Shown in pieces: positions 8,380 to 31,428 of a stretch of DNA of 64,000 nucleotides (position 1 is the stretch's first letter; the number at the start of each line of letters is the position of its first letter). The notes below the pieces were generated by a model, which was not told where the DNA came from, made no database searches, and worked only from the letters and a program-made list of their open reading frames with translations. Origin of the DNA: Spirochaetales bacterium (GTDB taxonomy: Bacteria > Spirochaetota > Spirochaetia > SZUA-6 > RPPD01); contig JAFGJO010000042.1 in the NCBI GenBank assembly GCA_016929065.1, forward strand, positions 96,300-160,299. Direction: 5' to 3'. The translations under genes and the position numbers were made by a program.

Positions 8380-9806
8380 TGGGGAAGCCAACTGGTTTTT
8401 TTGAATATGCTCGCAAGAGCTTTACCTATCGTCCGGTCAAGGAACGAATCAAGGATTTCAGGGAATTTGTCATCTGCCAGCCGGTGGAAGAAACACAAAC
8501 CCAGGGCTCGCGCTGTATGGACTGCGGAATTCCGTTTTGCCATTCAACGGGATGCCCGGTCTTTAATCTTATCCCCGAGTGGAATGACCTTGTCTATCAC
8601 GGGAAATGGGAAGAGGCGTATTACCGGCTGGAACTTACCAATAACCTGCCCGAGATTACCGGAAGGATTTGTCCCGCTCCGTGCGAAACGTCGTGTACGC
8701 TCTCTATTAATACCGCGCCGGTTACCATCAAACAGATAGAACTTGCCATAATCGAAAAGGCGTTCGAAGAAGGCTGGGTTGTTCCCCGTCCGCCGAAACA
8801 GGAAACAGGAAAACGAGTTGCAGTTATCGGGTCGGGGCCTGCAGGACTTGCCGCTGCACAGGAGCTCCGGCGCACCGGACATGCGGTGACCGTATTCGAG
8901 CAATCGTCGAAAGCAGGCGGAATCCTCCGCTACGGCATTCCCGATTTCAAACTGGAAAAACACATCATCGACCGCCGGCTTTCACAGATGGCGGCTGAAG
9001 GCATACAGTTTGAAACGAATGTTAGTGTGGGTGATGATGTTTCGGTAAAATATCTCAAACAGAAATATGATGCAATTCTCCTCGCACAGGGAGCCGGTGA
9101 ACCGCGGGACCTTCCCGTTCCGGGCCGCGGCCTTGAGGGCATTTACTATGCAATGGATTATTTGACGGTGAATAACATGGTACTCGCCGGCGAATTGCAG
9201 GATACCGATCTAATTTCAGCAAAAGACAAGACTGTTCTGGTGATCGGCGGCGGGGATACCGGAGCAGATTGCGTGGGAACGGCAAACCGCCAGGGTGCAA
9301 AAAAAGTGTTTCAGTATGAAATACTCCCAAAACCCCTTGAATGGAAAGAACCATTTAATCCTGAATGGCCGGCATGGCCGAATATTCTCCGCACCGGAAG
9401 TTCCCATGAAGAAGGCTGTACCCGTGACTGGTCAATCAATACAAAACAGTTCTCCAGTCAGGGTATTCGTGTTCAAAAGGGATATTTCAACCGGGTTGAA
9501 TGGAAAAAAGATGCATCGACCGGCAGGTTTAAAATGAACGAAATCGAGGGAAGCGATTTTTCACTTGATGTTGATATCGTCCTTCTGGCGATGGGTTTTC
9601 TGCATGTAAAACATTCTCGCCTCCTGCAGGATCTGGGCATTGAGTTTGATGAACGGGGCAATATAAAAACCAGTACCGGGTATGATACCAACGTACCGGG
9701 TGTATTTGCTGCCGGCGATTCATCCACCGGAGCATCCCTGATCGTGCGGGCAATCTGGCACGGAAGGCAGGCTTCTAAAAATATTGATACATTCCTGAAG
9801 CAATGA
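8379..9806 (+). CDS. gltD: Glutamate synthase small subunit (NADPH-dependent beta chain)
   Basis: Start overlaps the gltB stop. Fe-S Cys cluster 'CMDCGIPFCH...CPAPCETSC'. Two Rossmann dinucleotide motifs 'VAVIGSGPAGLAAA' and 'VLVIGGGDTGADC'. Confidence 0.95.
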   Translation: MGKPTGFFEYARKSFTYRPVKERIKDFREFVICQPVEETQTQGSRCMDCGIPFCHSTGCPVFNLIPEWNDLVYHGKWEEAYYRLELTNNLPEITGRICPAPCETSCTLSINTAPVTIKQIELAIIEKAFEEGWVVPRPPKQETGKRVAVIGSGPAGLAAAQELRRTGHAVTVFEQSSKAGGILRYGIPDFKLEKHIIDRRLSQMAAEGIQFETNVSVGDDVSVKYLKQKYDAILLAQGAGEPRDLPVPGRGLEGIYYAMDYLTVNNMVLAGELQDTDLISAKDKTVLVIGGGDTGADCVGTANRQGAKKVFQYEILPKPLEWKEPFNPEWPAWPNILRTGSSHEEGCTRDWSINTKQFSSQGIRVQKGYFNRVEWKKDASTGRFKMNEIEGSDFSLDVDIVLLAMGFLHVKHSRLLQDLGIEFDERGNIKTSTGYDTNVPGVFAAGDSSTGASLIVRAIWHGRQASKNIDTFLKQ

Positions 9807-9807
9807 T

Positions 9808-9838
9808 AAAAAAAGGCGCCATTCGGCGCCTTTTTTTA
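9808..9838. terminator. Bidirectional intrinsic terminator between the convergent gltD and gdhA
   Basis: AAAAAAA-GGCGCC-ATTC-GGCGCC-TTTTTTT. A perfect hairpin flanked by an A run and a T run. Confidence 0.7.
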
Positions 9839-9854
9839 TCATTTTTCAAAATTA

Positions 9855-11216
<1,362 letters not shown>

Positions 11217-11228
11217 TTAAAAATACTC

Positions 11229-11255
11229 ACCAAACGGTAATAGCTTGCCGTTTGG
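11229..11255 (-). promoter_or_regulatory. Dyad CCAAACGG-N10-CCGTTTGG in the gdhA 5' region, immediately upstream of the RBS (as RNA, an 8 bp hairpin)
   Basis: caccAAACGGTAATAGCTTGCCGTTTGGtaaa. Contains two copies of the AAACGG(C/T)AA motif in opposite orientation. Confidence 0.4.
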
Positions 11256-11392
11256 TAAATTTACCATAGCACCAGCCGTCATATATGTCAATATTTTTTC
11301 CGTTTTTTCCCCGATTTTTGGCAATAGAGAGGTGTTTTTCGATGTTTTTTGACCGTTTATTGCCGATTAACGTTCGACAAGTCCTTGTCGAT

Positions 11393-11410
11393 AACGGCAA
11401 TTTTGCCGTT
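11393..11410. promoter_or_regulatory. Perfect palindrome AACGGCAA-tt-TTGCCGTT between the nrpR-like stop and gdhA
   Basis: ataACGGCAAttTTGCCGTttga. Same half-site as at 11229-11255, 23924-23973 and 31419-31428. Confidence 0.4.
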
Positions 11411-11448
11411 TGAAATGCTTTTCAGCTATTTTTTTGTTCATAGTGCTG

Positions 11449-12519
11449 TTACGGGCTCTTGATAAGATCGCGGAATTTCTCTTCAAAGTCAGTGAAAAAA
11501 AACAGTTTATTGTAATCGATAACCGAAGACAGTGCCCGGGAATATACATCGACACCGTGTTCCTCAAGAATTGCCACAGGATTGAGGCCCCCAATCACAA
11601 TGGCCGCAATACGGCCCTCATTAACCGGTATTCCCAGCAATGTCTGGCCCGGAAAGCCCAACTGCAATAATCCGCCGAGTCCGACCTTGTCCAGTTCTGT
11701 GGAAAGCGCGAGCACTTTCTCCCTGCAAACAGCCGGGACTTCGCGAAAACTTGCACCTATCTGTCCGTTTCCGGTTGTTGTTGCGCCCCGGTGATCGGTC
11801 ATTCCGCTTTTAATGTAGATTTCGAGTGGATCAAGTGTCGTGCCGTCATAATTGATAATTGCGGTAAAACGGGACGGCTTCCAGTCCACATACTCAAGAA
11901 GCCCGCCGAACCGGCTCGTTACCGGAATTCCCCGGCTTAACAGAATGCCGTTTAAGGTAATGGAGCAAACTGTTCCGATGCCGATCATCCCTGCCGGAAT
12001 GATAATATCGCCGATCCGGTCTCCGGGGTAAAACATGGCCAGCAGTTTTCCCATGCTGTACCCCTTTTTAAAGACTTCCAGCATGTAGGGATAGGTATAT
12101 AACAGTTCCCGCTGGGAAACAATACTCATGTTGACGACAACACTCCCTGTTTTGGTTACAGGATCAAAGTTCATTTCACAGGACATCGCATCGATTTTTG
12201 ACGCCAGGAACCCCACTTTATCAAACACCCGGGCTTTGGTGAACTCGATGAGCCCCTTTTCGGTAATCTTCCGTCCCTGCCGGCCGATACATTCTGTGAG
12301 GCCGTTCTTGTCCATGGCATTCAAATGAAAGCGTACGGTTCGCTCGCTCATATCCATATTCAGCACAGCAAGCATCTCCATAATTGTCTGGCTTCCCAGC
12401 GGCTCATCAACATCCTTGAGTACTGACAGTATGGCGAGGCGTTTTTTTTCGATTTTGTCGCTGGTTTCTTTCATGGTCCTCAAATTCTGAATCAAGATGA
12501 ATTCTTCTCTGCGGCTCAT
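11449..12519 (-). CDS. NrpR-like nitrogen-repressor-family transcription regulator (N-terminal winged HTH plus one DUF128/NrpR domain)
   Basis: N-terminal 'IEKKRLAILSVLKDVDEPLGSQTIMEMLAVLNMDMSERTVRFHLNAMDKNGLTECIGRQGRKITEKGLIEF' has the NrpR winged-HTH pattern. A single globular domain of about 250 aa follows. The gene sits beside gdhA and near gltBD. The longest ORF starts with TTG at 12582; ATG starts at 12519 (MSRREEF) or 12474 (MKETSDK) are more likely. Confidence 0.5.
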   Translation of the reverse strand: MSRREEFILIQNLRTMKETSDKIEKKRLAILSVLKDVDEPLGSQTIMEMLAVLNMDMSERTVRFHLNAMDKNGLTECIGRQGRKITEKGLIEFTKARVFDKVGFLASKIDAMSCEMNFDPVTKTGSVVVNMSIVSQRELLYTYPYMLEVFKKGYSMGKLLAMFYPGDRIGDIIIPAGMIGIGTVCSITLNGILLSRGIPVTSRFGGLLEYVDWKPSRFTAIINYDGTTLDPLEIYIKSGMTDHRGATTTGNGQIGASFREVPAVCREKVLALSTELDKVGLGGLLQLGFPGQTLLGIPVNEGRIAAIVIGGLNPVAILEEHGVDVYSRALSSVIDYNKLFFFTDFEEKFRDLIKSP

Positions 12520-13199: not shown

Positions 13200-14504
13200 T
13201 TACACGCTCTCCCTCTTGTCTATGACCCGGCGTATCTTGTCTTTTGTCGCCCGCTCGAAGGTTCGAGGCTCCACAAAATGCACCTGTGCCGAAATCTCCA
13301 GCTCCTGCTGAATGCGTTCAACCAGTGTGTCGCGCATTGCCTCAAGTTTTCCCAGTTTGTCGATCTCAAATGACTCGCCAGCCTCGACCCTGACATCCAT
13401 GATGTCCTTTCCATTCTCACGGGACAGAACGATCTGGTAATGGGGTGCAGTCCCCTCTACATCAAGAAGAATCTGTTCGATTTCCGACGGGAATATTTTT
13501 TGTCCGTCAAAAAAGATCAGGTCATCGGTCCGGCCCGTCACTCTTGTTATACGGGTAAATGTTCTGCCGCATGAACACGGCTCTGAAATGAGTGATGCAA
13601 TATCGCCGGTCCGGTAACGGATCAAAGGGAACCCCTCCTTGGTGATGGTGGTAAACACCAGCTCGCCCTGTCCGTCTTCACCAACCCACTTGCCGGTGGC
13701 AGGATCAACAACCTCAACGATAAAATGGTCTTCATTGACATGCAGTCCCGCGCGCTCTTCACATTCGCCGGCAACACCCGGGCCCATAATCTCGGTGAGA
13801 CCGTAACTGTCATGGGCAGTGCAATGCAGTCTGGTTTCGATCTGCCTGCGCATGCTGTTACTCCACGGCTCTGCTCCGAAAATCCCGGTTTTCAGAGAAA
13901 GCTGTTCCGGGTGAATTTTCATCGCATCCATTTCCTGGGCAATATGAAGGGCAAAACCGGGCGTACACAACAAGGCTGTGGTCTTGTAGTCTTTCATAAT
14001 AGTAATCTGCTTTTCAGCGAGTGTTGTGGACGCGGGAATCACCGAGGCACCGATGAGTTCGGCACCCTGATGGAATCCAAAACCGCCGGTAAATAAATCG
14101 TAATGAAATGCAATCTGGACAACATCATGCTCGGTAATACCGGATGCTGCCAAAAGCCGGGCAGTACAGGCTGTCCAGTTTTTCAGGTCGTTTTTTGTAT
14201 ATCCCACCACAAGCGGTTTTCCGGCTGTCCCGGAGGTGGAATGTATCCGCACAATATCGCGCAGGGGAACGGCAAACATGTCATAGGGGTAAGCGGCGAG
14301 AAGGTCTGCGCGGGTGGTGAACGGCAGATTCGGCAGGTCTTCCCGGCTTTTTATTGATTCAATATTCACCCCGTGACTGTCAAATGATTTTTTATAAAAA
14401 GCTACATTACGGTACACACGGTTTAATGTGGTCTGCAGCCGTTCAATCTGGACCTGCTCCAGTTCTTTCCGAGGCATGGTTTCTGCTTTTTTATCGAATA
14501 TCAT
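13200..14504 (-). CDS. paaK: Phenylacetate-CoA ligase family (aryl-acetate:CoA ligase), copy 1
   Basis: 434 aa. 'ELEQVQIERLQTTLNRVYRNVAFYKKSFDSHGV', 'HSTSGTAGKPLVVGYTKNDL', 'GLTEIMGPGVAGEC'. AMP-binding fold. Lies immediately downstream of livF. Confidence 0.85.
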   Translation of the reverse strand: MIFDKKAETMPRKELEQVQIERLQTTLNRVYRNVAFYKKSFDSHGVNIESIKSREDLPNLPFTTRADLLAAYPYDMFAVPLRDIVRIHSTSGTAGKPLVVGYTKNDLKNWTACTARLLAASGITEHDVVQIAFHYDLFTGGFGFHQGAELIGASVIPASTTLAEKQITIMKDYKTTALLCTPGFALHIAQEMDAMKIHPEQLSLKTGIFGAEPWSNSMRRQIETRLHCTAHDSYGLTEIMGPGVAGECEERAGLHVNEDHFIVEVVDPATGKWVGEDGQGELVFTTITKEGFPLIRYRTGDIASLISEPCSCGRTFTRITRVTGRTDDLIFFDGQKIFPSEIEQILLDVEGTAPHYQIVLSRENGKDIMDVRVEAGESFEIDKLGKLEAMRDTLVERIQQELEISAQVHFVEPRTFERATKDKIRRVIDKRESV

Positions 14505-14513
14505 ATTTCCCCC

Positions 14514-15248
14514 CTACTCATCAATAGTACTGTAGTCTTTCCCAAGATACGCCCGGCCGACATCATGATTTTCCAGCAATTCCTCCCTGCTCCCGGAAAC
14601 TACAATCTGGCCTGTTTCAAGGACATACCCCCGGTCTGCAATTGACAGGGCTTTTTTTGCGTTTTGTTCAACAAGCAGAACAGAAAGCCCCTCTTCACGG
14701 AGCATGCTGATTGTTTTGAATATCTGCGACACAATAATGGGGGCAATCCCCATTGACGGCTCATCCATCATCAAAAGTTTCGGCCGCGACATAAGCGCAC
14801 GCGCGATCGCAAGCATCTGCTGTTCGCCCCCGGAGAGCGTTCCAGCCATCTGTTTCATCCTTTTTTGCAGGACAGGAAACAGGGAATACATTCTTTCGAT
14901 ATCCTGTTGTATTGCGGACTTTTCATTTTTTCCCGAACGCAAGAAGGCGCCAAGCTCCAGGTTCTCTTTTACCGTCAGGGTTGAAAAAACTCTCCGCCCC
15001 TCGGGAACAAGCACACATCCCGCCTCAACCCGTTTCTCTGCAGAAAAACTCTCCAGATCGGTATTATCGAATGTCACTGTTCCCGCAAAGGGTTTCAGGA
15101 TTCCCGCCACAGTCATCAGTAATGTGGATTTTCCCGCACCGTTCGGACCAATGACGGTCACAATTTCATTTTCCCCGACATGGACTGAAACCCCCTTGAG
15201 CACACGCAGCTTATGGTAACCGGATTGCAGATTCCGTATTGTCAGCAT
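14514..15248 (-). CDS. livF: Branched-chain amino acid ABC transporter ATP-binding protein
   Basis: Walker A 'GPNGAGKST'. Signature 'LSGGEQQMLAIARAL'. Walker B 'LLMMDEPS'. Confidence 0.9.
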   Translation of the reverse strand: MLTIRNLQSGYHKLRVLKGVSVHVGENEIVTVIGPNGAGKSTLLMTVAGILKPFAGTVTFDNTDLESFSAEKRVEAGCVLVPEGRRVFSTLTVKENLELGAFLRSGKNEKSAIQQDIERMYSLFPVLQKRMKQMAGTLSGGEQQMLAIARALMSRPKLLMMDEPSMGIAPIIVSQIFKTISMLREEGLSVLLVEQNAKKALSIADRGYVLETGQIVVSGSREELLENHDVGRAYLGKDYSTIDE

Positions 15249-16015
15249 TCGTCTTCCCCCAAATACACACGGATGACATCGGGATTTTTCTGTATTTCAC
15301 GCGGCAGGCCTTCGGCAAGGACCGCTCCTTCATTGAGCACAAGTATTTCATCGGAAATATCCATCACCATGGACATGTCATGCTCCACCAACAGGATGGT
15401 AATACCAAGGTCGCGGATCCTGCAGATGAGCTGTGACAGTTCTTTTGTCTCATAAATGTTCAATCCTGCAGCAGGCTCGTCCAAAAGCAGAATATCCGGT
15501 TCAAGAGCGCATGCCCGGGCGCATTCCACCTTCCGTTTTATCCCGAATGCAAGGTTTTGTGCTGTTTCGTCTATAAATTCTCCAAGGCTGAAAAATGTTA
15601 AGAGCTCGCGGGATTTTTTTTTACAGTCAGATTCCTCCCGCAGCGTCCAGGGCAGCCTGAGCGCACTCGCAATAAACCCTGCTTTTGTTTTTATATGCCG
15701 GCCCGCCATGATATTTTCAAGAACTGTCATGTGTTCAAACAGACGCGTTGTCTGATACGTCCTGGCCATTCCCAGCGCGGCAATTGCATATGGTTTTTTT
15801 GATGAGATCAATTCGCCCTTGAACATGACCCTCCCGGAATCCGCAGGGATAGCCCCGCTTAACAGATTAAAAAGCGTGGTTTTTCCCGCACCGTTCGGCC
15901 CGATAATCGATTTTATTTTACCTTTTTGAACCGAAAACCATACATCCCGAACCGCATGCAGGCCGCCGAAATGCTTGTTCAGCCCCTGTGCTTCAAGAAT
16001 TACAGCATCGCTCAT
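15242..16015 (-). CDS. livG: Branched-chain amino acid ABC transporter ATP-binding protein
   Basis: Walker A 'GPNGAGKTTLFN', Walker B 'ILLLDEPAAGL'. LivG-type C-terminus. Overlaps livF and livM. Confidence 0.9.
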   Translation of the reverse strand: MSDAVILEAQGLNKHFGGLHAVRDVWFSVQKGKIKSIIGPNGAGKTTLFNLLSGAIPADSGRVMFKGELISSKKPYAIAALGMARTYQTTRLFEHMTVLENIMAGRHIKTKAGFIASALRLPWTLREESDCKKKSRELLTFFSLGEFIDETAQNLAFGIKRKVECARACALEPDILLLDEPAAGLNIYETKELSQLICRIRDLGITILLVEHDMSMVMDISDEILVLNEGAVLAEGLPREIQKNPDVIRVYLGEDEC

Positions 16016-17253
16016 TTTTCGTCATCCTTCTTTTTATTTGCAAAAACAATACCCTTTTTTTCAAGTTTGCGCTTGAGCACCATTCTTCGCGTCAGGCGTC
16101 TTGTTTTTTTTATCACCACCTCCAGGTATTCTTTGCGGAACAACCCCCGGGGCAGAAACAGCATGGTCACCACCAAAATGAGCGCAAAAAATATTTCGTC
16201 GAAGCTGCCAAAGTAGCCGCGCAGGGAAACAAAGTTCAGCCCCATGCTCATGGCAACAACCCCCCAGATCGAATCCATGCCGCCTGCAGCGACGATGGAA
16301 ACATAGCGGACTGATTTTAATACACTTGTCTCGGAGGTGCCGATGCTCCCGTTATAATGAACAAGGAATACACCCGCAATGGCAGCGAACAATGCAGAGA
16401 GCACAAACACTCCGAGCTTGTAACGCATGGCATTGATCCCAAGAGACCCCGCAGCCTGTTCATTGCCGTGGATAGCGCGAAGGGCGCGGCCCACACGCGA
16501 GGCAACAATGTGCATACTGACAATGAGGACAATAAACAGAATAATGCCCGCAATATAGTAATTCACCGTGCGGTCAGCCATCCCGCCGTTTATGGATAAA
16601 GGCCCGACAAGATGGAATGCAGGAACCCGCGAGATCCCGTCGGCCTCTCCAAATAATTTGGTGCCAAATACAATGGTTGAAATAATAATACCAAACCCAA
16701 GAGTTGCCATGGCAAGATAATGCCCTTTCAGCCGGAGGACCGGAAGGCCGATAAGACAGGCAATGCCGATTGCGGTCAAAAGCGAGATAAACAATGCCGC
16801 CGAAGGGGCATATGACAAAATGCCATTGCCGAAACCATCAGTTCCCGGCACAAACATGCCAAAAATATCTCCAAGGCCCACGAACAGCTTTACGGGGATT
16901 CCCAGAATCGCCCCGATTTTTTCGGGAATGAGCTCATACCACTCTACTGTACCGAATATTTGTGACACATTTTTAAACACCTCATCCCATGAGGAGTGAA
17001 TTATTGAAGAAAAATCATGCGTGGTGAGCATTGCCTGCATATAGGCGCCGATACTGAAAAATCCGGCATGGCCAAGAGATATCTGGCCCGCGTATCCCAT
17101 CAGCAGGCATAATCCGATGACCACGATGGTATAATAAAAAGACATTGTAATCTGCGTAAAATAAAACGCAGCACCGGTAAGGGAGATGACGAGCTGCACT
17201 GCAACAAGCGCACCCAGAAAAACGGCCGCAGGAAGATATTGCCTGATATTCAT
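16012..17253 (-). CDS. livM: Branched-chain amino acid ABC transporter permease (with a basic C-terminal tail)
   Basis: Polytopic membrane protein. 'GYAGQISLGHAGFFSIGAY' matches the LivM family. The start overlaps the livH stop. Confidence 0.85.
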   Translation of the reverse strand: MNIRQYLPAAVFLGALVAVQLVISLTGAAFYFTQITMSFYYTIVVIGLCLLMGYAGQISLGHAGFFSIGAYMQAMLTTHDFSSIIHSSWDEVFKNVSQIFGTVEWYELIPEKIGAILGIPVKLFVGLGDIFGMFVPGTDGFGNGILSYAPSAALFISLLTAIGIACLIGLPVLRLKGHYLAMATLGFGIIISTIVFGTKLFGEADGISRVPAFHLVGPLSINGGMADRTVNYYIAGIILFIVLIVSMHIVASRVGRALRAIHGNEQAAGSLGINAMRYKLGVFVLSALFAAIAGVFLVHYNGSIGTSETSVLKSVRYVSIVAAGGMDSIWGVVAMSMGLNFVSLRGYFGSFDEIFFALILVVTMLFLPRGLFRKEYLEVVIKKTRRLTRRMVLKRKLEKKGIVFANKKKDDEK

Positions 17254-18311
17254 TAAAATTCCTTCAACTGGCTTGCCTGCCGGCTGCCGAATACACCGCT
17301 CGGTTTGAAAACAAGAATAAGTAAAAGCAGCAGGATCGCCACCACATCCTTGTAGGCATTGGGGAAGATACTGACACTAAACGCCTCGAGGATGCCCAGG
17401 ATGAGTCCACCGGCGACCGCTGCGAAACTGTTGCCGAGCCCGCCAAGGATGGCAACCGAGAATCCCTTTATGGCAAGTACCGATCCCATATCATACTTTG
17501 TCTGTGAAAGCGGGGAAATGACGCTGCCTGCCAGTGCGGCAATCGCGGCTGACACGATAAAGGAAATGGTAATCATAAGCCGGACATTTATCCCGCACAA
17601 TTTTGCGGCAGTGTGGTCAAGACTGCACGCTCTCATGGCCTTGCCGTAGCGGGTGTATTTGAAAAAGACATACAAGCCGATCACCAGGAGCGCACAAATG
17701 CCCAAGACCCAGATCCGCTGGGGAGAAAAAGAGATCGAACCCAATGACAGGATGGTATTTGAATCCCCGATAAAATAGGGAAGCACATGCGCGTCCTTGT
17801 CCCAGAGATGGCTCATGATTTCGCGCGTCAAAATAGAAACTGCAATGGTGAGCACAATCAGGCTCAAGACTGTCTGTTCTTTCATATATTTTCGAAACAC
17901 TGTTTCAAGCCCGAATCCAACGGGAAGGCCGAACAGAAATGCGGCGGCAAAATCAATACCCTCCGGTAAAAAGGAGAAAATGCCGAGTGTTTTTAGAAGA
18001 AGAGCGGCAATAATGCCGATACAGACCGACCGGAACGGTGAAAAAGACCGGTTGCGGCGGATAAACACATTTTCCACTACCGCCCCGTACACCGCAGCAA
18101 CCAGTACTCCCACGCCGATGGCAATACCGATCGGTAGAATGCTGGACATCGATATTGCGACCATGGCTCCCAGGATCAAAAAGTCTCCCTGGGCGAAATT
18201 GATAATTCCGGTGGTATTGTAGATAATATTAAATCCAATAGCCACAATCGCATACTGTGCGCCGACAGTGAGTCCTATGACGAGATAATTGAAAAACAGA
18301 TCAACATTCAT
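17253..18311 (-). CDS. livH: Branched-chain amino acid ABC transporter permease
   Basis: Polytopic. 'FNIIYNTTGIINFAQGDF' matches the LivH family. The likely start is MNVDLFFNYLVIGL at 18311; the ORF extends to 18341. Confidence 0.85.
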   Translation of the reverse strand: MNVDLFFNYLVIGLTVGAQYAIVAIGFNIIYNTTGIINFAQGDFLILGAMVAISMSSILPIGIAIGVGVLVAAVYGAVVENVFIRRNRSFSPFRSVCIGIIAALLLKTLGIFSFLPEGIDFAAAFLFGLPVGFGLETVFRKYMKEQTVLSLIVLTIAVSILTREIMSHLWDKDAHVLPYFIGDSNTILSLGSISFSPQRIWVLGICALLVIGLYVFFKYTRYGKAMRACSLDHTAAKLCGINVRLMITISFIVSAAIAALAGSVISPLSQTKYDMGSVLAIKGFSVAILGGLGNSFAAVAGGLILGILEAFSVSIFPNAYKDVVAILLLLLILVFKPSGVFGSRQASQLKEF

Positions 18312-18412
18312 GCTTTTCCCTGCTTTCTTTGGCAGAATCAAAACACTTTTTGGGAATTTGCTTTTTTATCATGGCATAACCGGAATGATTTTTCAACCCT
18401 GATTTTCTTGAC

Positions 18413-18438
18413 AAAAAAGCCCCCTGTTTCCAGGGGGC
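18413..18438 (-). terminator. Intrinsic terminator after giant surface protein 1
   Basis: Minus-strand RNA GCCCCCUG-gaaa-CAGGGGGC followed by UUUUUU. Confidence 0.75.
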
Positions 18439-18462
18439 CTATACAAATTACATTCTATGCCG

Positions 18463-21400
18463 CTATAAAATCCGCGCCCGTATCCCAAAGCTGAGAGACA
18501 GGTTTGTTCCGCCTTCAACTGCCGACGAGATAAACCACAGCTCAAGCTGCGTGTAGAATCCGAAGTTGTTGAATGCGCCCCAGTTCTCAATCGTAAAATT
18601 GGCGAATTCAAACTGAACAAGAGCTGCGCCAAATATCAATCCGTCTTCGCTGAATGCTATCTCTTCACCTGAATTCGTGAAATACGAGAATGCCGCACCC
18701 ACGCCGAGGGACATGGAAAAGAATTCCCAGTCAGGGCCAAGGAACGATGCGAACGGAAGCTTGAATACATTTGCAATAAGACGAGCGCCCAGGACTAGTC
18801 CGTTCGGCCATTTTTCCGCACCGGTAAACATATCTGTGTTTGGAGTGTAGCCTGCCTCAAACTGCAGTTTTACATTCTGGTCAAAGAAGGTGAGTCCCAG
18901 ACCCAGATGAAAGAGTGTCGCACCGGTCCCCTGCAGATCAATATACATTCCCTGAATAAACTCGGGGATGGAGTATCCGCTCTTGTCGCCCTTACGCAGG
19001 TTAACCGAAATATCAGCGAGCCGGTTTTCATCGGAAGCGATTCCCACAATCCGGATCTTGTCATTAAACCGTTGATTCTCCTCGGGGCCAAGGAGGTTCA
19101 CAAACGGCGGCTTGTCGTCGTTCAGATACATTGTTTTGGTAATTACCTGTTTTTCTCCCACGGTTGCACGCATGATAATGCGGACATTGCCGTCGGGGAT
19201 ATCCTGGGTCTGGAGCCGGTAGCGCCATTGGTCGGTCCCGTTCACCTCATGAAAGCTTTTGCCGTTATTGAGGCTGATCTCGACTTTCTGCACACGGTTT
19301 TTATTGAGCGTTTTTTCATATTTCTCAAACTCTTCCTTTTGTTCGCGGTCTACCGCATCAAGGAAAAATCCTGCCTCACCTTCGAGCCATGGACGCCGCG
19401 CCACAAAATCTCCGGTATGGAAATTGTTAATTCTCACCCATCCGCCCACACGGGTATAAATGATTTTTTGTTTTCCAGATTTGATCACACTGCCGTCGGC
19501 GCTGGTCGTTGCCAGTTCCAGATCATGTTCGCCGTCTCCAAGGTCTTCGGGACCCATATCAAGGTAAAAGTACCCGTATTCGGAAATGTCCGCCTGCTTT
19601 TTCTTTGCACCATCCACCAGCAGGTCTACGGTTTTTACCGGATATTCCGACATCACCTTACCGCTGATCGTAAAGAAGCCGGCGACATTTTCGCCCTCTA
19701 CAGGAAAAACCTGTTCCATTGTGTTCACAATTGTTTTTTCTTTTATCACGATATTGCGCGTAATATAGACAATATTGTTTGCCTTGTCGCGCGCCTCGAT
19801 GCGCAGATTATACCACCCGGGTTTCAGGCTGGTGACGTCGATCTGACGGGAAAACACACCGGAAAGCGGCAGTTCCACGGGTTTTGCGAGCGCTGAACTG
19901 CCGGTCTTGAATCCCGCTCCGCCGCTGATGGGCGATACCTCAAAGGTGAGAGCTGACAATACAATGTTGTCGAACGCACGGCCGTCAAGAAGCATTTTCT
20001 CTGTATACTCCTGCCCGTCCTTCGGAAAATCAAGGGAGAGGGTCGGCGGTGTATTGTCAATATTGAGCATTGTCGCAAAGAGCCCCTCGGTTGAGGTCTT
20101 GTCGACTGCTTTCACAAGGATTCGGTGAATCCCGTCTGAAAGCAGATGTGTATTCAATGGAAATGTCCATTTCTCCGCGCCGAATCCTTTCTGGAAGCTG
20201 TTGCCATTGTCAAAACTGAAATACACTTCCTTGATTCCGTTCGCGTCGCTCGAGTTCCCTGCCAGGGTAATGGTTCCGCGCGTGGTTACCGATACTTGTG
20301 GGGATTCAAGCGTTGAAATCGGTTCTGCCTTGGAGATGAATATCTTGCGTTTGATTACATCGCCTTTAAATCCGCTGATATCCTCGGCCTGCACTTCAAT
20401 GGTATGTTCGTTGTCAGTAATTTCATCAAGCTTTACGGGAACGCGGAAACTGTTTCCACCCTCGAGTTTCTGAAACTCGCCGTTGTCAAGCCTGAAGTAT
20501 ATCGCACCCACACCGTCATCGTCGAAAACCATGCCCGAGATGACAAAGTCGTTCCTCAGAACTTCTTCTTCTTCCGGAATCTGGATTTCGGCGACCGGTT
20601 TGTCGGCCTCATAATTGATATTGAATACCGGATTGGTCACCGCATTGTTGCCTGCCATGTCCGTTACTCTGAAATAAAATTTCTCGGGAAGTTTTTTGTA
20701 TTTTGTCAAATCAAGATTGTAGGCAAGGAATCTGCCGCCCTCGATCGGTGTATATGTTTTTCCATCATCGGAAAACTCGATAGTTTTGATCCTGCCCTCA
20801 TCGGCAATATCCGCCATAACGCTGAAGATACCGTTTACCGGAACCCCTTCTTGCGGAGTAATAAGGGTAAACGCCGCGTTGGCAGTATCTTTTTTCAGCG
20901 GAATCACTTTTACAGTGCTTTTGCCGCTGTTGTCGGTTGCCTTCACAAACAGGGGAAATGTTCCGTCTGCGATCGCCTCAAGAGAAATTGTCTCGGAAAA
21001 AGTCACACCCTCTGTGCTCTTTTTTACGGTCATCGGCTTGTAGGTACCTTCCGCGTTCAGGGCATATTCAACCGCGGCGATGCCGATCTTGTCGTTTGCC
21101 GTTCCCTCGATTTTCACCGAGTTTTTGTACCATTCCTCGGCCACCGGTGTGGTTAACGTGAGTTCAGGCTCCCCTGCATCGGAAATGAACTGTAATTTTT
21201 TAACAAAGGTCTTGCCATTGGTTTTCTTCACCACAATTTCAACCGCCTGGCTTAATCCCTCGCCGGTTGCAGTAATGGTGATCTTCCGGCCGTCTGCCGA
21301 TGCCTGCAGAAATCCCGTTGCCGGTTTTATCTCGACGCTTGCAACAGTGTACCCGTTGAAAAATCCGATTAAGGGTTTTTCCGGTGCAATATATGCTTTG

Positions 21401-23862
21401 TTGTCAGCGGTTATCCTTGAATCGATAAAATACAGATCCTCGGCAGTGTTGAGCACCGTCTTGCCGGGATCATCAATTTTGTAAAAAAAATCAGAATAAT
21501 ACCCGGTCTGTTTTGTCTTGTTGGTAAACCGGACAGTAAACTCGTTTTTACCGTAGGGAAGTTCCTTGGGCAGGGCAATACTGATCGCCGCAAGCGGCTG
21601 ATTGTTGTTTCGTTTGACATCAATCCCCTTGTATTCCTTGCCGCCATTAAAGCTCACTTCTGCTCGATCGATGGTTTGCTCGACTGTTCCTTCCAGCCGC
21701 ATGGTTCCGTCGCTTGCAGCAAGCTGCACCCCGGAAAAATAGTCAACCGTCGCGGTTTTCGAAACTGCTTTAAGGATTGCTGCAGAATACACATCTGCGG
21801 AGGGTGAGTTCACTGTTGTCACACTAACCGGTTCGGAAGTTACTGTTTCCCCGCCGACGGTTTTTATACTGATCCGCACGGTTCCTTCAACGCCGGTCTG
21901 GGACGGGGTGATAATAACCCGTTTCCCCTGGGCCGATGCCGACAGAAACGGGGTATTCGGTTCAAGCGATACCGATGCGATATCCTCCCCGGAATAATAA
22001 GCGGTAAGCGGAGAATCGGATGCAATCTCTACCTGATCATTCGCATTCTTGCGTGCCAAAGCAAGCGACAGTGCTGGTTTTTCGTATATCCCGGTATAAT
22101 TGTTGACATACACAAACGTGGTAAAGGAAAAAGACCGGTCATATTTGTCTGTGGCGTTAATTGTAATGGGAACAACACCATACGGGATGTCCGGCGAAAG
22201 AGCTATTTCAAACTCGCGCCAAAACTTTTCGGTCATTGTTTTCAAGGTGATCGGTTTGGGGGCAATCCCCTCAGTCTCCCACGTCGCTTTGGCAAAACCG
22301 CCGTAATCGCGGATGAGCCCGGTGAGTTTTGCATTGCCGGCCTTGTCCACTGCTATTCCAGGATAAAAGGGAGCTGAAGATTTACCGCTCACCAGATCCT
22401 GCATGACCAGTTCTGTATTGCCGCCCGTAGAGGTAAAATCAACAGTCACCGGAAGTCCTTTTGTACCGTACATGTCTGTTGCAGTAACGGTGATTTTGTG
22501 CTTTCCCGCAGCAAGTTCGTCAAGAATGAGGGAAAATCCTTCCTTTGCCTCGACCGTTGTGCTTTCTTTTCCATCGATGGAATAGGTAATTTCTTTTGCA
22601 CCGTCCGCATCGGTAACGAATCCGTAGACAGGCAGCCTTCCAGAGATCACTGCATCTGCAAACGGCGACAACAGCTGAACCACCGGCTTGTCAGCTTCTC
22701 GGTCGATTTTTACCGGAACCCGCAGTACTTCCTTGTTGCCGGTGCTGTCTTCCAGGGTAAACGTAACTGTTTCCTCGGCAGATGCCAGCCCCGAAAAATC
22801 AAAGTTCTGTTTCCAGTAAATGTTTCCGGGAACGAGTTCAATCTCCCCTGTTTTATCTTTCCATTCCCAGGTCAGACCCTTTAACCCGATTTCGTCCCGC
22901 GCCGTCCCCACAACCGCAACCTGCGAAAGGTTTTTCGCATCGGGAAGCGGAGAGACAATTTCCAAAGCCGGTTTCTTGTTGTCGACAAAGAACAGAAACG
23001 CAGCATAGCCCACAGAACCGGTATTGTCCGTACTTTTAAACCAGAACACCTGCGGTCCGTCCTCGAGCCGGTTCGTGTCGATATCAAGCTTGAAAACATA
23101 TTGACTTTCTTCCTGTTTGTATTCCATGCCCAGCTGCTTGTAGGTTTCCCCGCGGTCTTCACTGTAAAAAAGCGAGACAATCCCGTTTAAATCCCGGACA
23201 TTTGCCTCCAGTTTTGCATTGCCGTGCAGGAGCACGCCGCTTTGGGCATTGGTAAACTCAAACAGCGGTTTTGCCGTATCGATCTGAAACTTGCGGGAGA
23301 CTTCATTACCCACAGCACCGTTTATATCAATACCGCGTACGGTGATCGTGTGTACCCCGTCGGTATAGCCTTCTGTTTTAAAATTGTACGACCAGAAATC
23401 CTTTCCCTGTGCGGGAGCGTATTCTCCCTCATCGATTTTTACTTCCACCTTGGCAACCGCGTCGTCGTCCGCGCACACCCCCACAATGTTGAGGCTTGAG
23501 CCGCCGACACGCATCATGTTCACCGGGTTGGTAATATCTACCACCGGCAAATCCGAATCCGGATCAATTAAAATATTGACCGGGCCTTCAAAATAGACAT
23601 TGCCTGCCTTGTCAGTACCTTTTATAATGATATTATATGTTCCCTTTTCAAGGCCGGATACATCAAAGGTATAGTCCCAGTTTTCAAGGCCGTTTGCCTT
23701 TTTGTAGGAATTAAGAAAAGGCTCAGGAGTGGGTTTTGGCGTTGCAACCACAGGAGTTTCTTCCCCGGCCGAAACAGGAGTTTCTTCCTGGGCAAAGACA
23801 ACCATCCCGGTTGTCCCCAAAAAGAGTATGAACATCAACGCAAACAGTCTCATTTTAAACAT
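18463..23862 (-). CDS. Giant secreted surface protein 1 (about 1800 aa). Signal peptide, more than 12 tandem Ig-like beta-sandwich modules, and a C-terminal amphipathic beta-strand (putative outer-membrane barrel) region
   Basis: Signal peptide 'MRLFALMFILFLGTTGMVVFA/QEE'. Module motif [LIV]xGxAxDxxGhxxhxhxxDxGxxY recurs, for example 'IVGVCADDDAVAKVEVKID', 'VSGTARDEIGLKGLTWEW', 'VYGFVTDADGAKEITYSIDGK', 'IEGTANDKIGIAAVEYAL', 'ISGMVFDDDGVGAIYFRLDNG', 'LAGNSSDANGIKEVYFSFDNG', 'IVGIASDENRLADISVNL'. The last 170 aa have alternating hydrophobic strands ending in '...LSLSFGIRARIL'. The ORF could start at 23910. Confidence 0.6.
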   Translation of the reverse strand: MFKMRLFALMFILFLGTTGMVVFAQEETPVSAGEETPVVATPKPTPEPFLNSYKKANGLENWDYTFDVSGLEKGTYNIIIKGTDKAGNVYFEGPVNILIDPDSDLPVVDITNPVNMMRVGGSSLNIVGVCADDDAVAKVEVKIDEGEYAPAQGKDFWSYNFKTEGYTDGVHTITVRGIDINGAVGNEVSRKFQIDTAKPLFEFTNAQSGVLLHGNAKLEANVRDLNGIVSLFYSEDRGETYKQLGMEYKQEESQYVFKLDIDTNRLEDGPQVFWFKSTDNTGSVGYAAFLFFVDNKKPALEIVSPLPDAKNLSQVAVVGTARDEIGLKGLTWEWKDKTGEIELVPGNIYWKQNFDFSGLASAEETVTFTLEDSTGNKEVLRVPVKIDREADKPVVQLLSPFADAVISGRLPVYGFVTDADGAKEITYSIDGKESTTVEAKEGFSLILDELAAGKHKITVTATDMYGTKGLPVTVDFTSTGGNTELVMQDLVSGKSSAPFYPGIAVDKAGNAKLTGLIRDYGGFAKATWETEGIAPKPITLKTMTEKFWREFEIALSPDIPYGVVPITINATDKYDRSFSFTTFVYVNNYTGIYEKPALSLALARKNANDQVEIASDSPLTAYYSGEDIASVSLEPNTPFLSASAQGKRVIITPSQTGVEGTVRISIKTVGGETVTSEPVSVTTVNSPSADVYSAAILKAVSKTATVDYFSGVQLAASDGTMRLEGTVEQTIDRAEVSFNGGKEYKGIDVKRNNNQPLAAISIALPKELPYGKNEFTVRFTNKTKQTGYYSDFFYKIDDPGKTVLNTAEDLYFIDSRITADNKAYIAPEKPLIGFFNGYTVASVEIKPATGFLQASADGRKITITATGEGLSQAVEIVVKKTNGKTFVKKLQFISDAGEPELTLTTPVAEEWYKNSVKIEGTANDKIGIAAVEYALNAEGTYKPMTVKKSTEGVTFSETISLEAIADGTFPLFVKATDNSGKSTVKVIPLKKDTANAAFTLITPQEGVPVNGIFSVMADIADEGRIKTIEFSDDGKTYTPIEGGRFLAYNLDLTKYKKLPEKFYFRVTDMAGNNAVTNPVFNINYEADKPVAEIQIPEEEEVLRNDFVISGMVFDDDGVGAIYFRLDNGEFQKLEGGNSFRVPVKLDEITDNEHTIEVQAEDISGFKGDVIKRKIFISKAEPISTLESPQVSVTTRGTITLAGNSSDANGIKEVYFSFDNGNSFQKGFGAEKWTFPLNTHLLSDGIHRILVKAVDKTSTEGLFATMLNIDNTPPTLSLDFPKDGQEYTEKMLLDGRAFDNIVLSALTFEVSPISGGAGFKTGSSALAKPVELPLSGVFSRQIDVTSLKPGWYNLRIEARDKANNIVYITRNIVIKEKTIVNTMEQVFPVEGENVAGFFTISGKVMSEYPVKTVDLLVDGAKKKQADISEYGYFYLDMGPEDLGDGEHDLELATTSADGSVIKSGKQKIIYTRVGGWVRINNFHTGDFVARRPWLEGEAGFFLDAVDREQKEEFEKYEKTLNKNRVQKVEISLNNGKSFHEVNGTDQWRYRLQTQDIPDGNVRIIMRATVGEKQVITKTMYLNDDKPPFVNLLGPEENQRFNDKIRIVGIASDENRLADISVNLRKGDKSGYSIPEFIQGMYIDLQGTGATLFHLGLGLTFFDQNVKLQFEAGYTPNTDMFTGAEKWPNGLVLGARLIANVFKLPFASFLGPDWEFFSMSLGVGAAFSYFTNSGEEIAFSEDGLIFGAALVQFEFANFTIENWGAFNNFGFYTQLELWFISSAVEGGTNLSLSFGIRARIL

Positions 23863-23923
23863 CGTTTTTCCTCCTTGATTCACCGTTGGCCGTAAGCTCC
23901 GGTGTTTCACACCAAAACCATAG

Positions 23924-23973
23924 TTTGCCGTTTTCTCTCCGTGTTCTGTGCAGAACGGCCATAAAACGGCAAA
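23924..23973. promoter_or_regulatory. Inverted repeat TTTGCCGTTTT-N28-AAAACGGCAAA upstream of giant protein 1. Same AAACGGCAA half-site as at gdhA and livK
   Basis: tagTTTGCCGTTTTctctccgtgttctgtgcagaacggccatAAAACGGCAAAg. Confidence 0.4.
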
Positions 23974-24002
23974 GAAAAAGCTCTCTCCCCTCAGGGAGAG
24001 AG
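23971..24002 (-). terminator. Intrinsic terminator after giant surface protein 2
   Basis: Minus-strand RNA CUCUCUCCC-ugag-GGGAGAGAG followed by CUUUUUCUUU. It starts 13 nt after the stop at 24015. Confidence 0.75.
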
Positions 24003-24014
24003 TATCAATTTGTA

Positions 24015-27000
24015 TTATTCTTCGGGCTTGAGCTGGACGATATCAAACGCATCACCCTTGTATCCAACCGACACTGTCCAATCCACCGAACCCTTTGCAT
24101 ACTCAATACTGGTCCGGTTTTCTGAAATAGGAGTGGACAGAGGTGCATTAATATATTCCCAGCTTGAACGGGTTGTATCCCAATAAGCTACCTTGAGTCC
24201 ATTAAAGGTTCCAATCATTGAACTGTTCAGGTATGAAATATACGGAGTTGTCCCGTTCAGGGTAATGTCCGCCCAGGCACCCACAGCTCCTTCGCTGTCA
24301 ATCACTGTGCTGGCCGCAAACACGTAATTGTCATTGGAAAAGTCCGGGCCGCTCGGATCAATATCAGGCGCGGTAATATATACCAGATCGCCGGTCGAGA
24401 TCCGATAACAGGCAAGATACAGTCTTCCAGTAGTATCAAAATCTATAGTGACATGCTGGCCGATATAGAATCTGTTGGGATCACTTGTCCCGACAAAAAC
24501 AGTCTGGCGGTACCAGTCTGACGGCGATGCCGGCGCGGTGCTTGTCGCCCGTGCAAGTTTTATTGTCTGTGCTGCGATGTCATAGTAAGCAATTACCGGA
24601 TATCCCTGTTCATCGACATCAATCGTCACATATGAACCTGCCGAGGTACTTCTCGTTGCCCCCTGCGAAACAAGATTGCTCGTTGCTGTAATGATTGTAT
24701 AACTGGTATAAGTAGTATCAATGGTCGTATCAAAATCCACACGTCCAGTGCCGCTGGTAAATGCAGTAATGAGTGCTGTCCCGTAATTTCCCAAATTATT
24801 ATGAAGCTGAATTGTCTGACCGGCAGCAATCATGGTGTTCCCTATAAGTGCGGTATCGGTAACCCGGGTATTTGCCCTTGTGCCTACACCGGTTAAATGG
24901 ATCACGTCGTCACCATCAGACCCGCCGTCAATATTTATCCAGTTCATCTCCCCGGTTGACGTACTGCCATTCAGCGCATATCCGTATTTTACGGCATTGG
25001 TGTTGAGATCGTAATAGGCAATATGAATGTTATTCCCGGTTCGTACAACCTTCGGCCTCTGGAACTGCAAAAGCATGGTATCGTGATACAGCATCTCGAA
25101 CCGGTAAAAATAGTTCCAGGGATAAGCGCCACCGCGCTGAACCTGCTGCGGAGCGCTCGTATTGTAGACACTCACCGCTCCTGCCGAGTCGATATCCGGC
25201 GACCACCCCGATCCGCCGTAGTAATTTCCAAGGTAAACAACAGAAATGTTATCCGAACTGTCAAGATGAATATCACTGTATTCAGCGGGGTCATACATCT
25301 GGAATATCGGCGTTGCCGATGCTGTGGTCCCATAGAACACGGACGCTGCTGTTGTGTAGTCGGTCCATGATCCATACAGGGTTCCGTCCGAGGCGATGCT
25401 CATTGCCGGGTATTGAGCATTTGTACTTGAATCGAATGAAAGCCCGGTTCTCCAGACTGACAAATATCGGTCGTCATTCCACAAAGTCTCGTCGATGCCG
25501 CTTCCGTCATCTTCCTTGTTGTACACAAGCAGATCGCTATTCACTGTATTGACGGCTTCGATATTATTTACCATAACCCGGAGCCACCCTGAATGAGTTA
25601 CTGCGTTCAAATTTGTCAACGTCAGCTGGGTAAACGTCCCATTTGCCGTCACATCCGCATTTGCAATCTGGTCATATTCCAGGGTTCCTGTTGCGCCGTC
25701 GCCGATTTCACGGTCCCAGACGCGGACCCAGGAATTGGTTCCGTATGTTCCTGTTTTCGCCAGATTGTACCCATTGATTGCCAGCCCGGTTTCACCTGTC
25801 TGGACCGAGTATTTCCCATATTTGGAACGGGTTGTCGCTTCCGCACCGAGCGAACGCAGTATCCCCGAAATATACGGAACGACATCGTGATCACGGCTTT
25901 CGAAACTGTTGTTCGGGGTAAAGTCAATCGCACGCACCAAAACTGTTATATTGTCGCCGGTCCGGTTGGTGACATTCGCGGTATTCCAGACATATGTCCA
26001 GTCAAAGTCATGCCCGCCGGATTCCGTCAAGGTGACATTGCTGATCGTCAGGTTGCCGAAAGTCCCGCCGGTATACGTCTGCGGCCAGGTTGCCAGTGCA
26101 ACCTCGGTACCGTCGCCGGAACCCAGATCAAAGTTGTCAATCGCCATATTGAAGTACCGGATTCTCTGGTTGTCATGCATATGCCCTTTCAGCGTAATCG
26201 TTCCGCTGACATCCGGATCGGTCCCGTCATAAAGGCTGTCTCCGTCATGTTCGATATGACCGCCGGTGACAGGATCGGATGTCCGGTCGGACTGTGAAAG
26301 GTCGTCCAGCGTCACCTCCGGTGCATCGCCGTCATCATTATCGATCACCACATCAATGGTTTCATCGACATAAATACCATCCGCGTCGGTCACCCGTATC
26401 AGGAAGGTCGTCGGACCTTCGCTGTATCCGCTAATGTCGATGTCGCCTGCAGCAGCCGAAAGCACCAGGGCACCTGCAGCATCCGGATGATACACACGGT
26501 AATCGGATAATGTATCATTGTCTGTTGCGGTGACGCTGATATAAAGCAGATTTCGGCCGGTAATTCCATAGGCGTCATCATAGACGAACCGTTCGTTGGC
26601 ATCATCGGTTGAATCATCAAAATCAAGATCCGTTCCCACAGTAAGCCCGGTAATCTGGGGTTTGTTGTTTTTGATGAATCCCGTCTGTTCATTATGTCGG
26701 CCATTGCCTCCCTTGTCGAAGGTGACATAATGGATGGTTAACGGACCATCGGGAATATTTGATGAATCAAACTGTGCCCACCAGTTGTAATCAGAACCGG
26801 AAAGCGTGAGGGATTCATCATACCCGTCTCCATCTCCATTCCCGGAGCCGTCATTTCCCAGCTCGGTTGTTTTATCGATGGTGATCACATAATCCGTTTT
26901 TTCACCTGGATCCATATAAGGCACATCACCGTTTCCATCGTCAAAATCATTTAAGGTTGCCGTTGTGGTGCCCGCGCCATTCGGACTGTACAACGTGTAG

Positions 27001-29678: not shown

Positions 29679-29796
29679 CGAGGGCCCCCTCAAAAGATCA
29701 AATTTCACCTATTTTATTATCGTCGGTTTTTTCCGCGACGATACAAATTTCCTTCCGTGATAGACATTTTATTATTATTTGACTTTTTAGAGTTCC

Positions 29797-29825
29797 CCTC
29801 AATAATAATATAGCACCTTTGCGCG
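29797..29825 (-). promoter_or_regulatory. Candidate sigma70 promoter for giant protein 2 (TTGAAA, 17 bp spacer, TATATT)
   Basis: On the minus strand: TTGAAAtacccgcgcaaaggtgcTATATT. The -10 maps to 29797-29802 and the -35 to 29820-29825. Confidence 0.4.
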
Positions 29826-29951
29826 GGTATTTCAATAGATTTTCGCTGTTATTTTTTTGTATAAAAAGTTCTCCCAAAGACCGTGGAGGAAAAAAAGAGC
29901 ACTTTTCGCTTCCAGACAGTTGAGGATGAAACAAGTGTTCTATAGATTATG

Positions 29952-29978: not shown

Positions 29979-30176
29979 ACCTTCCCCCTTTAAAAAAATC
30001 AGGTGCTTCCCCATAAAAAAACAAGTTATTATTTATCCGGCAGGCTGAACCTGCCTTCCTGTACAGTAAACAACTCAAAGACGTTTATGTCAAGCCCGTT
30101 TTGATTTTGTGTCAAAAATGACAAACGGTCAGAAAGGATAGGACCAGAACAATTGTCACATCGTAATCATTACCTC

Positions 30177-30214: not shown

Positions 30215-30231
30215 CAATATGCTTTTATAAT

Positions 30232-31418: not shown

Positions 31419-31428
31419 TTTGCCGTTA
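31419..31428 (-). promoter_or_regulatory. Copy of the ATAACGGCAA motif directly upstream of the livK Shine-Dalgarno
   Basis: Minus-strand sequence guATAACGGCAAAAucaAAAGGAGGGaaaaggu-AUG. Confidence 0.35.

Follow-up and report, generated by a model that had tools for sequence, protein, structure and literature searches.

What reads the short inverted repeats on either side of the predicted gdhA promoter in this Spirochaetales bacterium, and how far does the control that they may exert extend? The stretch analyzed (contig JAFGJO010000042.1; here called the window, 64 kb in length, with an intergenic share of 10.2%) had been noted in a preliminary description for the recurrent word AAACGG[CT]AA, which was taken as a regulatory signal, either a DNA operator or an RNA element, linking gdhA with the amino acid uptake gene livK and a giant surface protein gene (giant gene 1). 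We found that the word belongs to a palindrome with the half-sites GGCAA and TTGCC, two copies of which occupy the spacer between gdhA and a gene for an NrpR-family regulator. Many uncultured bacteria have kept the same palindrome beside their nrpR-type genes, and it is therefore most likely an NrpR binding site. We place the probability that both spacer dyads are DNA operators of the NrpR-family regulator encoded upstream at about 0.78. The earlier view of a genuine regulatory signal with gdhA among its targets was sustained, and the signal is one of nitrogen metabolism and most probably a DNA operator. The regulon said to join gdhA, livK, and giant gene 1 was not supported, since conserved-type dyads were found only at gdhA.

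The spacer between nrpR and gdhA is 247 bp long, and both genes lie on the minus strand with nrpR upstream. Read along that strand, the order is dyad 1, promoter, dyad 2, AGGAGG, and ATG (Table 1). The two dyads differ in spacing, dyad 1 being of the form GGCAA-N2-TTGCC (12 bp, referred to as N2) and dyad 2 of the form GGCAA-N4-TTGCC (14 bp, N4). Dyad 1 is located 41 nt past the nrpR stop codon, some 145 bp ahead of the point where gdhA transcription is predicted to start. The predicted promoter matches the sigma-70 consensus at 10 of 12 positions in addition to its TG extension, and its position places dyad 2 at approximately +1 to +28 of the predicted transcript. The center of dyad 2 is 41 bp ahead of the gdhA ATG and 159 bp from the center of dyad 1. 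The hairpin-forming dyad described earlier in the gdhA 5' region was confirmed at 11229 to 11256, with 12-bp arms, one mismatch, and a 4-bp center. The other dyad had been called a perfect palindrome at 11393 to 11410; it does have two perfect 8-bp inverted arms but is not a strict palindrome, because its TT center is not self-complementary. The gdhA product matched NCBIfam NF006929 at 778 bits (cutoff of 536).

A loose search of the window for dyads, with two mismatches allowed, returned only uninformative noise, and weight matrices for N2 and N4 built from related loci were therefore used instead, the window maxima being compared with those of shuffled windows. The best N2 match, which was also the best match of the whole window, was dyad 1 at 11392 to 11411 with 27.8 bits, and the best N4 match was dyad 2 at 11232 to 11253 with 19.6 bits. 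The shuffled-window maxima were 14.5 bits (N2) and 18.6 bits (N4), such that both gdhA dyads scored above every shuffle. A 13.8-kb Logan contig that extends the right edge of the window had no site of at least 15 bits.

The 9-mer was less telling than the dyads. Exact copies numbered six on the two strands [11232(+), 11245(-), 11403(-), 23925(-), 23964(+), and 62312(+)] rather than the seven or more first counted, and they were not always intergenic as had been stated, since the copy at 62312 lies within the open reading frame (ORF) at 61631 to 62797; the other five are intergenic. The expectation by dinucleotide shuffling was 1.63 ± 1.28, with six copies reached in 2 of 100 shuffles, and the window has 66 one-mismatch versions where 37.6 would be expected, among them those at 11392 and 31420 (both TAACGGCAA) and that at 30123 (AAACGGTCA). 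The 9-mer is a flank plus a half-site of the dyad and no free-standing word, and the significance of the signal comes from the dyad arrangement and its conservation, not from the 9-mer count.

The gene upstream of gdhA encodes a protein that by its domain content is assigned to the NrpR family, with matches to HTH_12 (PF08461; E = 8.7e-17, residues 50 to 113 of the long ORF), NRD1_2 (PF01995; E = 1.9e-77), and PDB entry 3NEK (MJ0159; E = 1.3e-26, residues 90 to 326). It is 100% identical to P0001, a protein from a Spirochaetales metagenome-assembled genome. Residues 43 to 51 in the winged-helix region, SERTVRFHL, were invariant or nearly so among 25 bacterial homologs; these residues are a putative recognition helix, and an invariant helix would fit the invariant core of the sites. 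Bacterial NrpR homologs amount to more than 4,000 proteins from Spirochaetales, Thermodesulfobacteriota, Abyssobacteria, and others.

A scan of genome contigs with the single NrpR protein gave only two loci (NrpR 65 to 66% identical), and an alignment-based scan of metagenomes was therefore needed, which added 80 further loci at 52 to 66% identity. The resulting 82 NrpR-anchored loci, 461,831 bp in total, are the sample for the spacing and target counts given below. The two loci of the genome-contig scan, both from Spirochaetaceae metagenome-assembled genomes, each had the exact 9-mer a single time in 13 kb, directly past the nrpR stop codon, and in both the order of dyad 1, promoter, dyad 2, and gdhA was kept. 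When the window was aligned with three Spirochaetaceae loci (NrpR 64 to 66% identical), only dyad 1, the -35 and -10 elements, dyad 2, and the Shine-Dalgarno/ATG region were conserved, and the rest of the spacer had diverged. Dyad 1 formed 16 invariant columns in a row, and the four genomes also agreed without exception in TATTGACA at the -35 and in TG-N-TA at the -10 element. An N2 dyad just past the nrpR stop codon was also present in loci L001, L002, and L004 to L007, and an N4 dyad was at the equivalent place in L001, L002, and L007. The comparison of orthologous promoters, which the preliminary description had proposed as a check, upheld the gdhA dyads, and conservation of control-region blocks amid diverged flanks is what would be expected of repressor operators in general.

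Across the 82 loci, exact GGCAA-N2-TTGCC was observed 78 times and exact GGCAA-N4-TTGCC 48 times, and each of the remaining spacings from 0 to 10 was observed 0 to 4 times (random expectation, approximately 0.5). Everted and direct arrangements of the pentamer were at background. When the search was anchored on one half-site, the TTG of the other was followed by CC in 156 of 180 cases for N2 and 96 of 115 for N4, indicating full symmetry. The consensus for N2 was A-N-Y-GGCAA-WW-TTGCC-R-N-T, that is, a half-site (A-N-Y)GGCAA with a 2-bp A/T spacer, and that for N4 was Y-GGCAA-(t n n a)-TTGCC-R. The center-to-center distances of neighboring N2 operators clustered at 130 to 133, 140 to 144, and 151 to 155 bp, and statistics that ignore the kinship of the loci gave apparent periods of about 11.5 bp between N2 sites and about 10.25 bp between N2 and N4 sites; these distances give a hint of helical phasing, which we regard as a lead only. 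Locus L009 has three overlapping GGCAA-N4-TTGCC dyads in tandem with a 14-bp period at 2184 to 2225 (junctions …TTGCCGGCAA…), ahead of a glutamate-synthase-type gene.

Target genes were assigned by crude ORF calls, BLAST clustering, and Pfam/NCBIfam matches, with a site threshold of at least 15 bits. Sites were present upstream of nrpR in 54 of 81 cases, of PF01645 glutamate-synthase-type genes (about 530 amino acids) in 35 of 41, and of gdhA in 9 of 14, compared with 12 of 213 other ORFs (about 6%). Of these 12, several were either a classical gltB or a NuoE-like gene at the head of a NuoEF-ferredoxin-Glu_synthase operon, and two were antisense artifacts over nrpR. N4 sites had a target gene as their nearest gene in 42 of 69 cases, at a median of 27.5 to 57 bp before the ATG, and N2 sites had nrpR as theirs in 83 of 113. 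Two layouts recurred. In one, the target gene is followed divergently by N4, about 90 to 140 bp, N2, about 140 to 145 bp, a second N2, and nrpR; in the other, which is that of the window, nrpR is followed by N2, 135 to 160 bp, N4, and the target gene. The palindrome accordingly stands at the promoters of nitrogen assimilation genes and is tied to nrpR, as would be asked of an NrpR operator on functional grounds.

Several of these loci had further features of their own. In L084 (11084 to 15895; also in L085, L037, and L057), the dyad is followed by genes for NuoE-like, NuoF-like, and ferredoxin-like proteins and then for a 529-amino-acid protein with the Glu_synthase domain, an arrangement that points to an NADH-linked glutamate synthase complex controlled in the same way. 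Paired full-length divergent nrpR paralogs with N4 and N2 in the shared spacer were observed in L046 (2189 to 4812), L059 (2385 to 5008), L061 (2654 to 5005), L077 (6 to 1982), and L080 (411 to 2672); these pairs may be connected with the two spacing classes. In L041 (4288 to 5572), the place directly after the N2/N4 pair downstream of nrpR, which in relatives belongs to the target gene, is taken by a gene for an IS1595-family transposase, whose insertion has probably pushed the target aside or disrupted it.

Taken by its parts, the proposal is strongest for the dyads being a protein-bound DNA site, which we consider very likely; that NrpR is the protein binding them is likely, to a somewhat lesser degree. 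An NrpR dimer on the N4 site would block initiation or promoter escape at gdhA, and the N2 site would serve either as an accessory operator that assists by cooperativity or DNA looping or as a roadblock to transcription running on from nrpR. Release of the repressor by 2-oxoglutarate would then induce the enzymes that convert 2-oxoglutarate to glutamate as the substrate accumulates. GDH (glutamate dehydrogenase) and glutamate synthase both use up 2-oxoglutarate, which would in this way bring about its own turnover into glutamate. By analogy with the archaeal system, we slightly favor such relief of NrpR repression by 2-oxoglutarate. The sites ahead of nrpR in other loci look like autoregulation.

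Several points speak against this assignment. The regulator is linked to the sites through co-localization only, and the direction of regulation and the effector through analogy only. All 82 loci were picked for carrying nrpR, and the counts hold for such loci. Two spacings that differ by 2 bp would be unusual for one rigid dimer, and the flanks of N4 sites are more symmetric than expected for independent half-sites, which gives some room to a hairpin role. In the window, no dyad was found upstream of nrpR, unlike in most relatives, or upstream of the classical gltBD operon. The archaeal operator GGAA-N6-TTCC occurred there twice (42949 and 44740), far from nitrogen genes and at the level of chance (2.02 expected). 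The preliminary description had set NrpR aside on the ground that the site differs from GGAA-N6-TTCC; the difference is real, but to rule out NrpR on it was misleading, given that nrpR adjoins the sites and that the dyad is tightly associated with nrpR across bacteria.

One rival reading is that the GGCAA dyads are bound by some other regulator of nitrogen or glutamate metabolism, the targets of which simply happen to be found near nrpR as a rule. The NrpR assignment by co-localization, the dissimilarity to the archaeal consensus, and the two spacing classes, which could mean two proteins (some loci having two divergent nrpR paralogs), would all be compatible with such a factor. We nevertheless consider it improbable, as nrpR is the sole gene common to all 82 loci, no second regulator gene recurs among them, the sites ahead of nrpR resemble autoregulation, and the window has both N2 and N4 yet a single nrpR in 64 kb. 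A role in RNA, with dyad 2 forming a 5'-terminal stem-loop in the gdhA leader that serves as a stabilizer, attenuator, or protein-binding hairpin, appears less probable still. Dyad 2 has a predicted fold of -17.4 kcal/mol (z score of -4.1) followed by the U-rich GAGUAUUUUU, N4 sites are located in leaders, their flanks are more symmetric than expected at positions -1 to -3, and G.U-type mismatches are in weak excess over A.C-type mismatches on the sense strand (23 versus 11). Against this, the core is invariant and not covarying in more than 120 sites, in 11 of 24 target-proximal N4 sites the stem ends with the 5-bp core, the U tract is missing in L001, L002, and L007, and the sense-strand mismatch of the window is C.A and not G.U. 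N2 sites, moreover, are upstream of promoters, and their 2-nt loop cannot close. No Rfam match was obtained in the whole window at the gathering score, and none at an E value of ≤1 for 11150 to 11500. The flank symmetry and mismatch signals being weak, the hairpin was not adopted as the main model, and the excess symmetry at N4 leaves a small doubt in favor of a secondary role.

The letters GGCA...TTGC also recall the -24/-12 promoters at which sigma-54 serves nitrogen genes (TGGCAC-N5-TTGC), with enhancer sites farther upstream, and the positions of N4, 30 to 60 bp before the start codons of nitrogen assimilation genes with more sites 100 to 150 bp upstream, would suit them. Such promoters require GG-N10-GC, from which N4 (GG-N9-GC) falls one base short and N2 (GG-N7-GC) three; the N5 spacing was observed 4 times versus 48 for N4; the sites are two-fold symmetric; the canonical TGGCAC-N5-TTGC was absent from the 462 kb and from the window; and a conserved sigma-70 promoter stands just upstream of dyad 2. 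This reading, which we regard as barely credible, was rejected on spacing and symmetry, in agreement with the earlier statement that the repeats do not fit sigma-54. The lack of a match to GlnR/TnrA or NtcA sites, also stated earlier, was likewise borne out on reading the sites.

It is unlikely that single or everted AAACGGCAA half-sites put livK and giant gene 1 under the same factor as well. The weight matrices gave nothing upstream of livK, the giant genes, gltBD, or nrpR, nor at 30123. The livK copy does adjoin the Shine-Dalgarno sequence at 31420, as described, and the related copy reported near 30124 is present at 30123, but both are one-mismatch words, of which the window has 66, and both are single half-sites with no N2/N4 partner. 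Since the copies at livK and the giant gene are lone half-sites, the extension to these genes is unsupported. The inverted copies at 23924 to 23973 were confirmed, with perfectly matching 11-bp arms around the 28-bp spacer. Long inverted repeats are so few in the window (about seven, this one included) that its arms are unlikely to carry the exact operator 9-mer by chance, which counts for the wider regulon, as do the extra adjacent half-sites (TTGCCGGCAA) in relatives and the plausibility of nitrogen control of amino acid uptake. The half-sites of this repeat face outward (TTGCC...GGCAA) without N2/N4 partners, and because everted (N28 to N38) and direct arrangements were at background in the 82 loci, the pair was not classed with the operators. 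Its predicted RNA fold is -22.3 kcal/mol (z score of -2.95), and Rfam gave only sub-threshold chance matches at 23850 to 24050.

The dyad at 18002 to 18021 is the only further strong matrix match in the window and, as a 19.4-bit N2 dyad within a permease gene of the leucine/isoleucine/valine (LIV) uptake cluster, also counts for a wider regulon. Since Pfam BPD_transp_2 starts at residue 20 of the ORF, this dyad is truly within coding sequence. A bolder reading would combine these observations. NrpR would act through two geometries, a 14-bp N4 at the target promoter and a 12-bp N2 situated 90 to 160 bp away near nrpR, in helical phase, giving looped, 2-oxoglutarate-sensitive repression over glutamate-forming enzymes; here the everted hairpins (23924 to 23973 and 11360 to 11400) and the 18002 to 18021 dyad would further extend control to the giant adhesin and the LIV cluster. 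We hold this to be doubtful, only a little less so than the simpler extension to livK and giant gene 1; if true, it would tie surface-protein expression to nitrogen status.

Table 1. Coordinates of the dyads, related repeats, and genes in the window
Feature	Coordinates	Strand	Sequence	Remarks
gdhA, NADP-specific glutamate dehydrogenase	9855..11201	-		Pfam ELFV_dehydrog and ELFV_dehydrog_N
gdhA Shine-Dalgarno	11209..11214	-	AGGAGG	Read from sequence; invariant in four-genome alignment
Dyad 2 (N4)	11229..11256		ACCAAACGGTAA-TAGC-TTGCCGTTTGGT	Core GGTAA-TAGC-TTGCC at 11236-11249
gdhA promoter, sigma-70 type (predicted)	11263..11291	-	TTGACA (11291-11286), TATGGT (11268-11263)	17-nt spacer; TG-extended
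Dyad 1 (N2)	11392..11411		TAACGGCAA-TT-TTGCCGTTT	Core GGCAA-TT-TTGCC at 11396-11407; 27.8 bits
NrpR-family regulator gene	11449..12474	-		341 amino acids; winged helix and one NRD domain
Near-consensus N2 dyad	18002..18021		GAGCGGCAA-TA-ATGCCGATA (CGGCAA-TA-ATGCCG)	About 110 codons into livH-like permease ORF; 19.4 bits, shuffled maximum 14.5
Inverted repeat	23924..23973		TTTGCCGTTTT-N28-AAAACGGCAAA	Between giant gene 2 terminator and giant gene 1; exact 9-mer in both arms, everted
One-mismatch copy	30123..30131	+	AAACGGTCA	No N2/N4 partner; unsupported as operator
livK half-site	31420..31428	-	TAACGGCAA	Lone; no TTGCC partner at N2/N4; outside top matrix matches; unsupported as operator

Other repeats and gene arrangements were observed around these features. 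Adjoining dyad 1 is a palindrome at 11372 to 11393, TCGACAAG-TC-CTTGTCGA, with the shape CGaCAA-N4-TTGtCG, that is, a symmetric N4 variant scoring 8.0 bits; it was not conserved in L001, L002, and L007. An everted half-site pair around a small palindrome at 11360 to 11400, beside dyad 1, was also not conserved. Between the convergent gltD and gdhA genes, at 9802 to 9843, is a long A/T-flanked GC hairpin that resembles a bidirectional terminator. The livK half-site stands where transcription might plausibly start, and next to it is a perfect palindrome of unrelated sequence. This palindrome, AAAACAGTCA-T-TGACTGTTTT, lies at 31441 to 31461 between an ACT-domain gene and livK (RNA fold of -12.1 kcal/mol, z score of -5.5), with direct TTGCCG words on either side at 31420 and 31468, and may serve as a terminator for the operon upstream or as an operator in its own right. 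In the region from 13200 to 31398, livK (30232 to 31398) is split from livHMGF and a paaK-like gene (13200 to 18341), and two giant genes with immunoglobulin-like (Ig) domains, encoding 1,897 and 1,815 amino acids, lie between livK and livHMGF. The true start of giant gene 1 is probably the ATG at 23862 and not the listed GTG at 23910, the former having the Shine-Dalgarno sequence AAGGAGGA and a typical signal peptide (MFKMRLFALMFILFLG…).

In methanogens, NrpR is the textbook example of a nitrogen repressor. In the searchable literature, from which subscription papers and regulon databases are excluded, we found no study of a bacterial NrpR operator or regulon, the work on NrpR being concerned with methanogens. 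What is new here is a testable operator consensus, a conserved multisite architecture, and a core regulon of nrpR, NADP-dependent GDH, and several kinds of glutamate synthase, which enables genome-wide prediction of nitrogen regulons in uncultured anaerobes. The bacterial sites also offer a natural experiment in which one regulator family was rewired from archaeal TATA-type to bacterial sigma-70 promoters, and they are small defined parts for 2-oxoglutarate-responsive gene switches. No existing concept is overturned, and we see the result as useful and testable rather than conceptually surprising.

The archaeal NrpR of Methanococcus maripaludis, which acts at nif, glnA, and glnK-amtB, is of the same family, with a winged helix and NRD. 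It binds palindromic GGAAN6TTCC operators upstream of nitrogen assimilation genes and represses the nif and glnA promoters in a 2-oxoglutarate-dependent manner. Work by Lie and colleagues from 2005 is said to describe two nif operators. The bacterial sites resemble this system in being short palindromes, the N4 form having the same 14 bp (a GG-N10-CC frame) with A4 and T11 shared, in the presence of more than one operator per control region, in the nitrogen assimilation targets, and presumably in the effector, 2-oxoglutarate being the known archaeal one. They differ in the half-site, which is GGCAA and not GGAA, and so fall outside the archaeal sequence definition, and in the additional 12-bp N2 class with its own position preference. 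The host context differs as well, with a bacterial sigma-70 promoter in place of archaeal TATA/BRE, as do the targets, which are gdhA and glutamate synthases and not nif and glnA. Most bacterial nrpR genes have their own upstream sites, whereas archaeal nrpR has been reported to be unresponsive to nitrogen supply.

The domain layout is also that of Methanosarcina NrpRI, the protein that carries the DNA-binding region in that genus, with one winged helix and one NRD domain in about 340 amino acids, and the Joint Genome Institute labels several of the homologs "NrpRI." In contrast to Methanosarcina, no NRD-only gene of the NrpRII type was seen beside the bacterial genes, and some loci have two full-length divergent paralogs instead. 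The sigma-54 consensus TGGCAC-N5-TTGCW shares with the dyads the letters GGCA...TTGC and the association with nitrogen genes, but the dyads are outside its class. Palindrome-binding global nitrogen regulators of bacteria include NtcA (GTA-N8-TAC), TnrA/GlnR (TGTNA-N7-TNACA), and AmtR. The likeness to these is one of design, in that nitrogen or 2-oxoglutarate status is sensed by a dimeric factor whose dyads lie at ammonium assimilation promoters, and the difference lies in the parts, NtcA, TnrA/GlnR, and AmtR belonging to protein families unrelated to NrpR and recognizing other site sequences.

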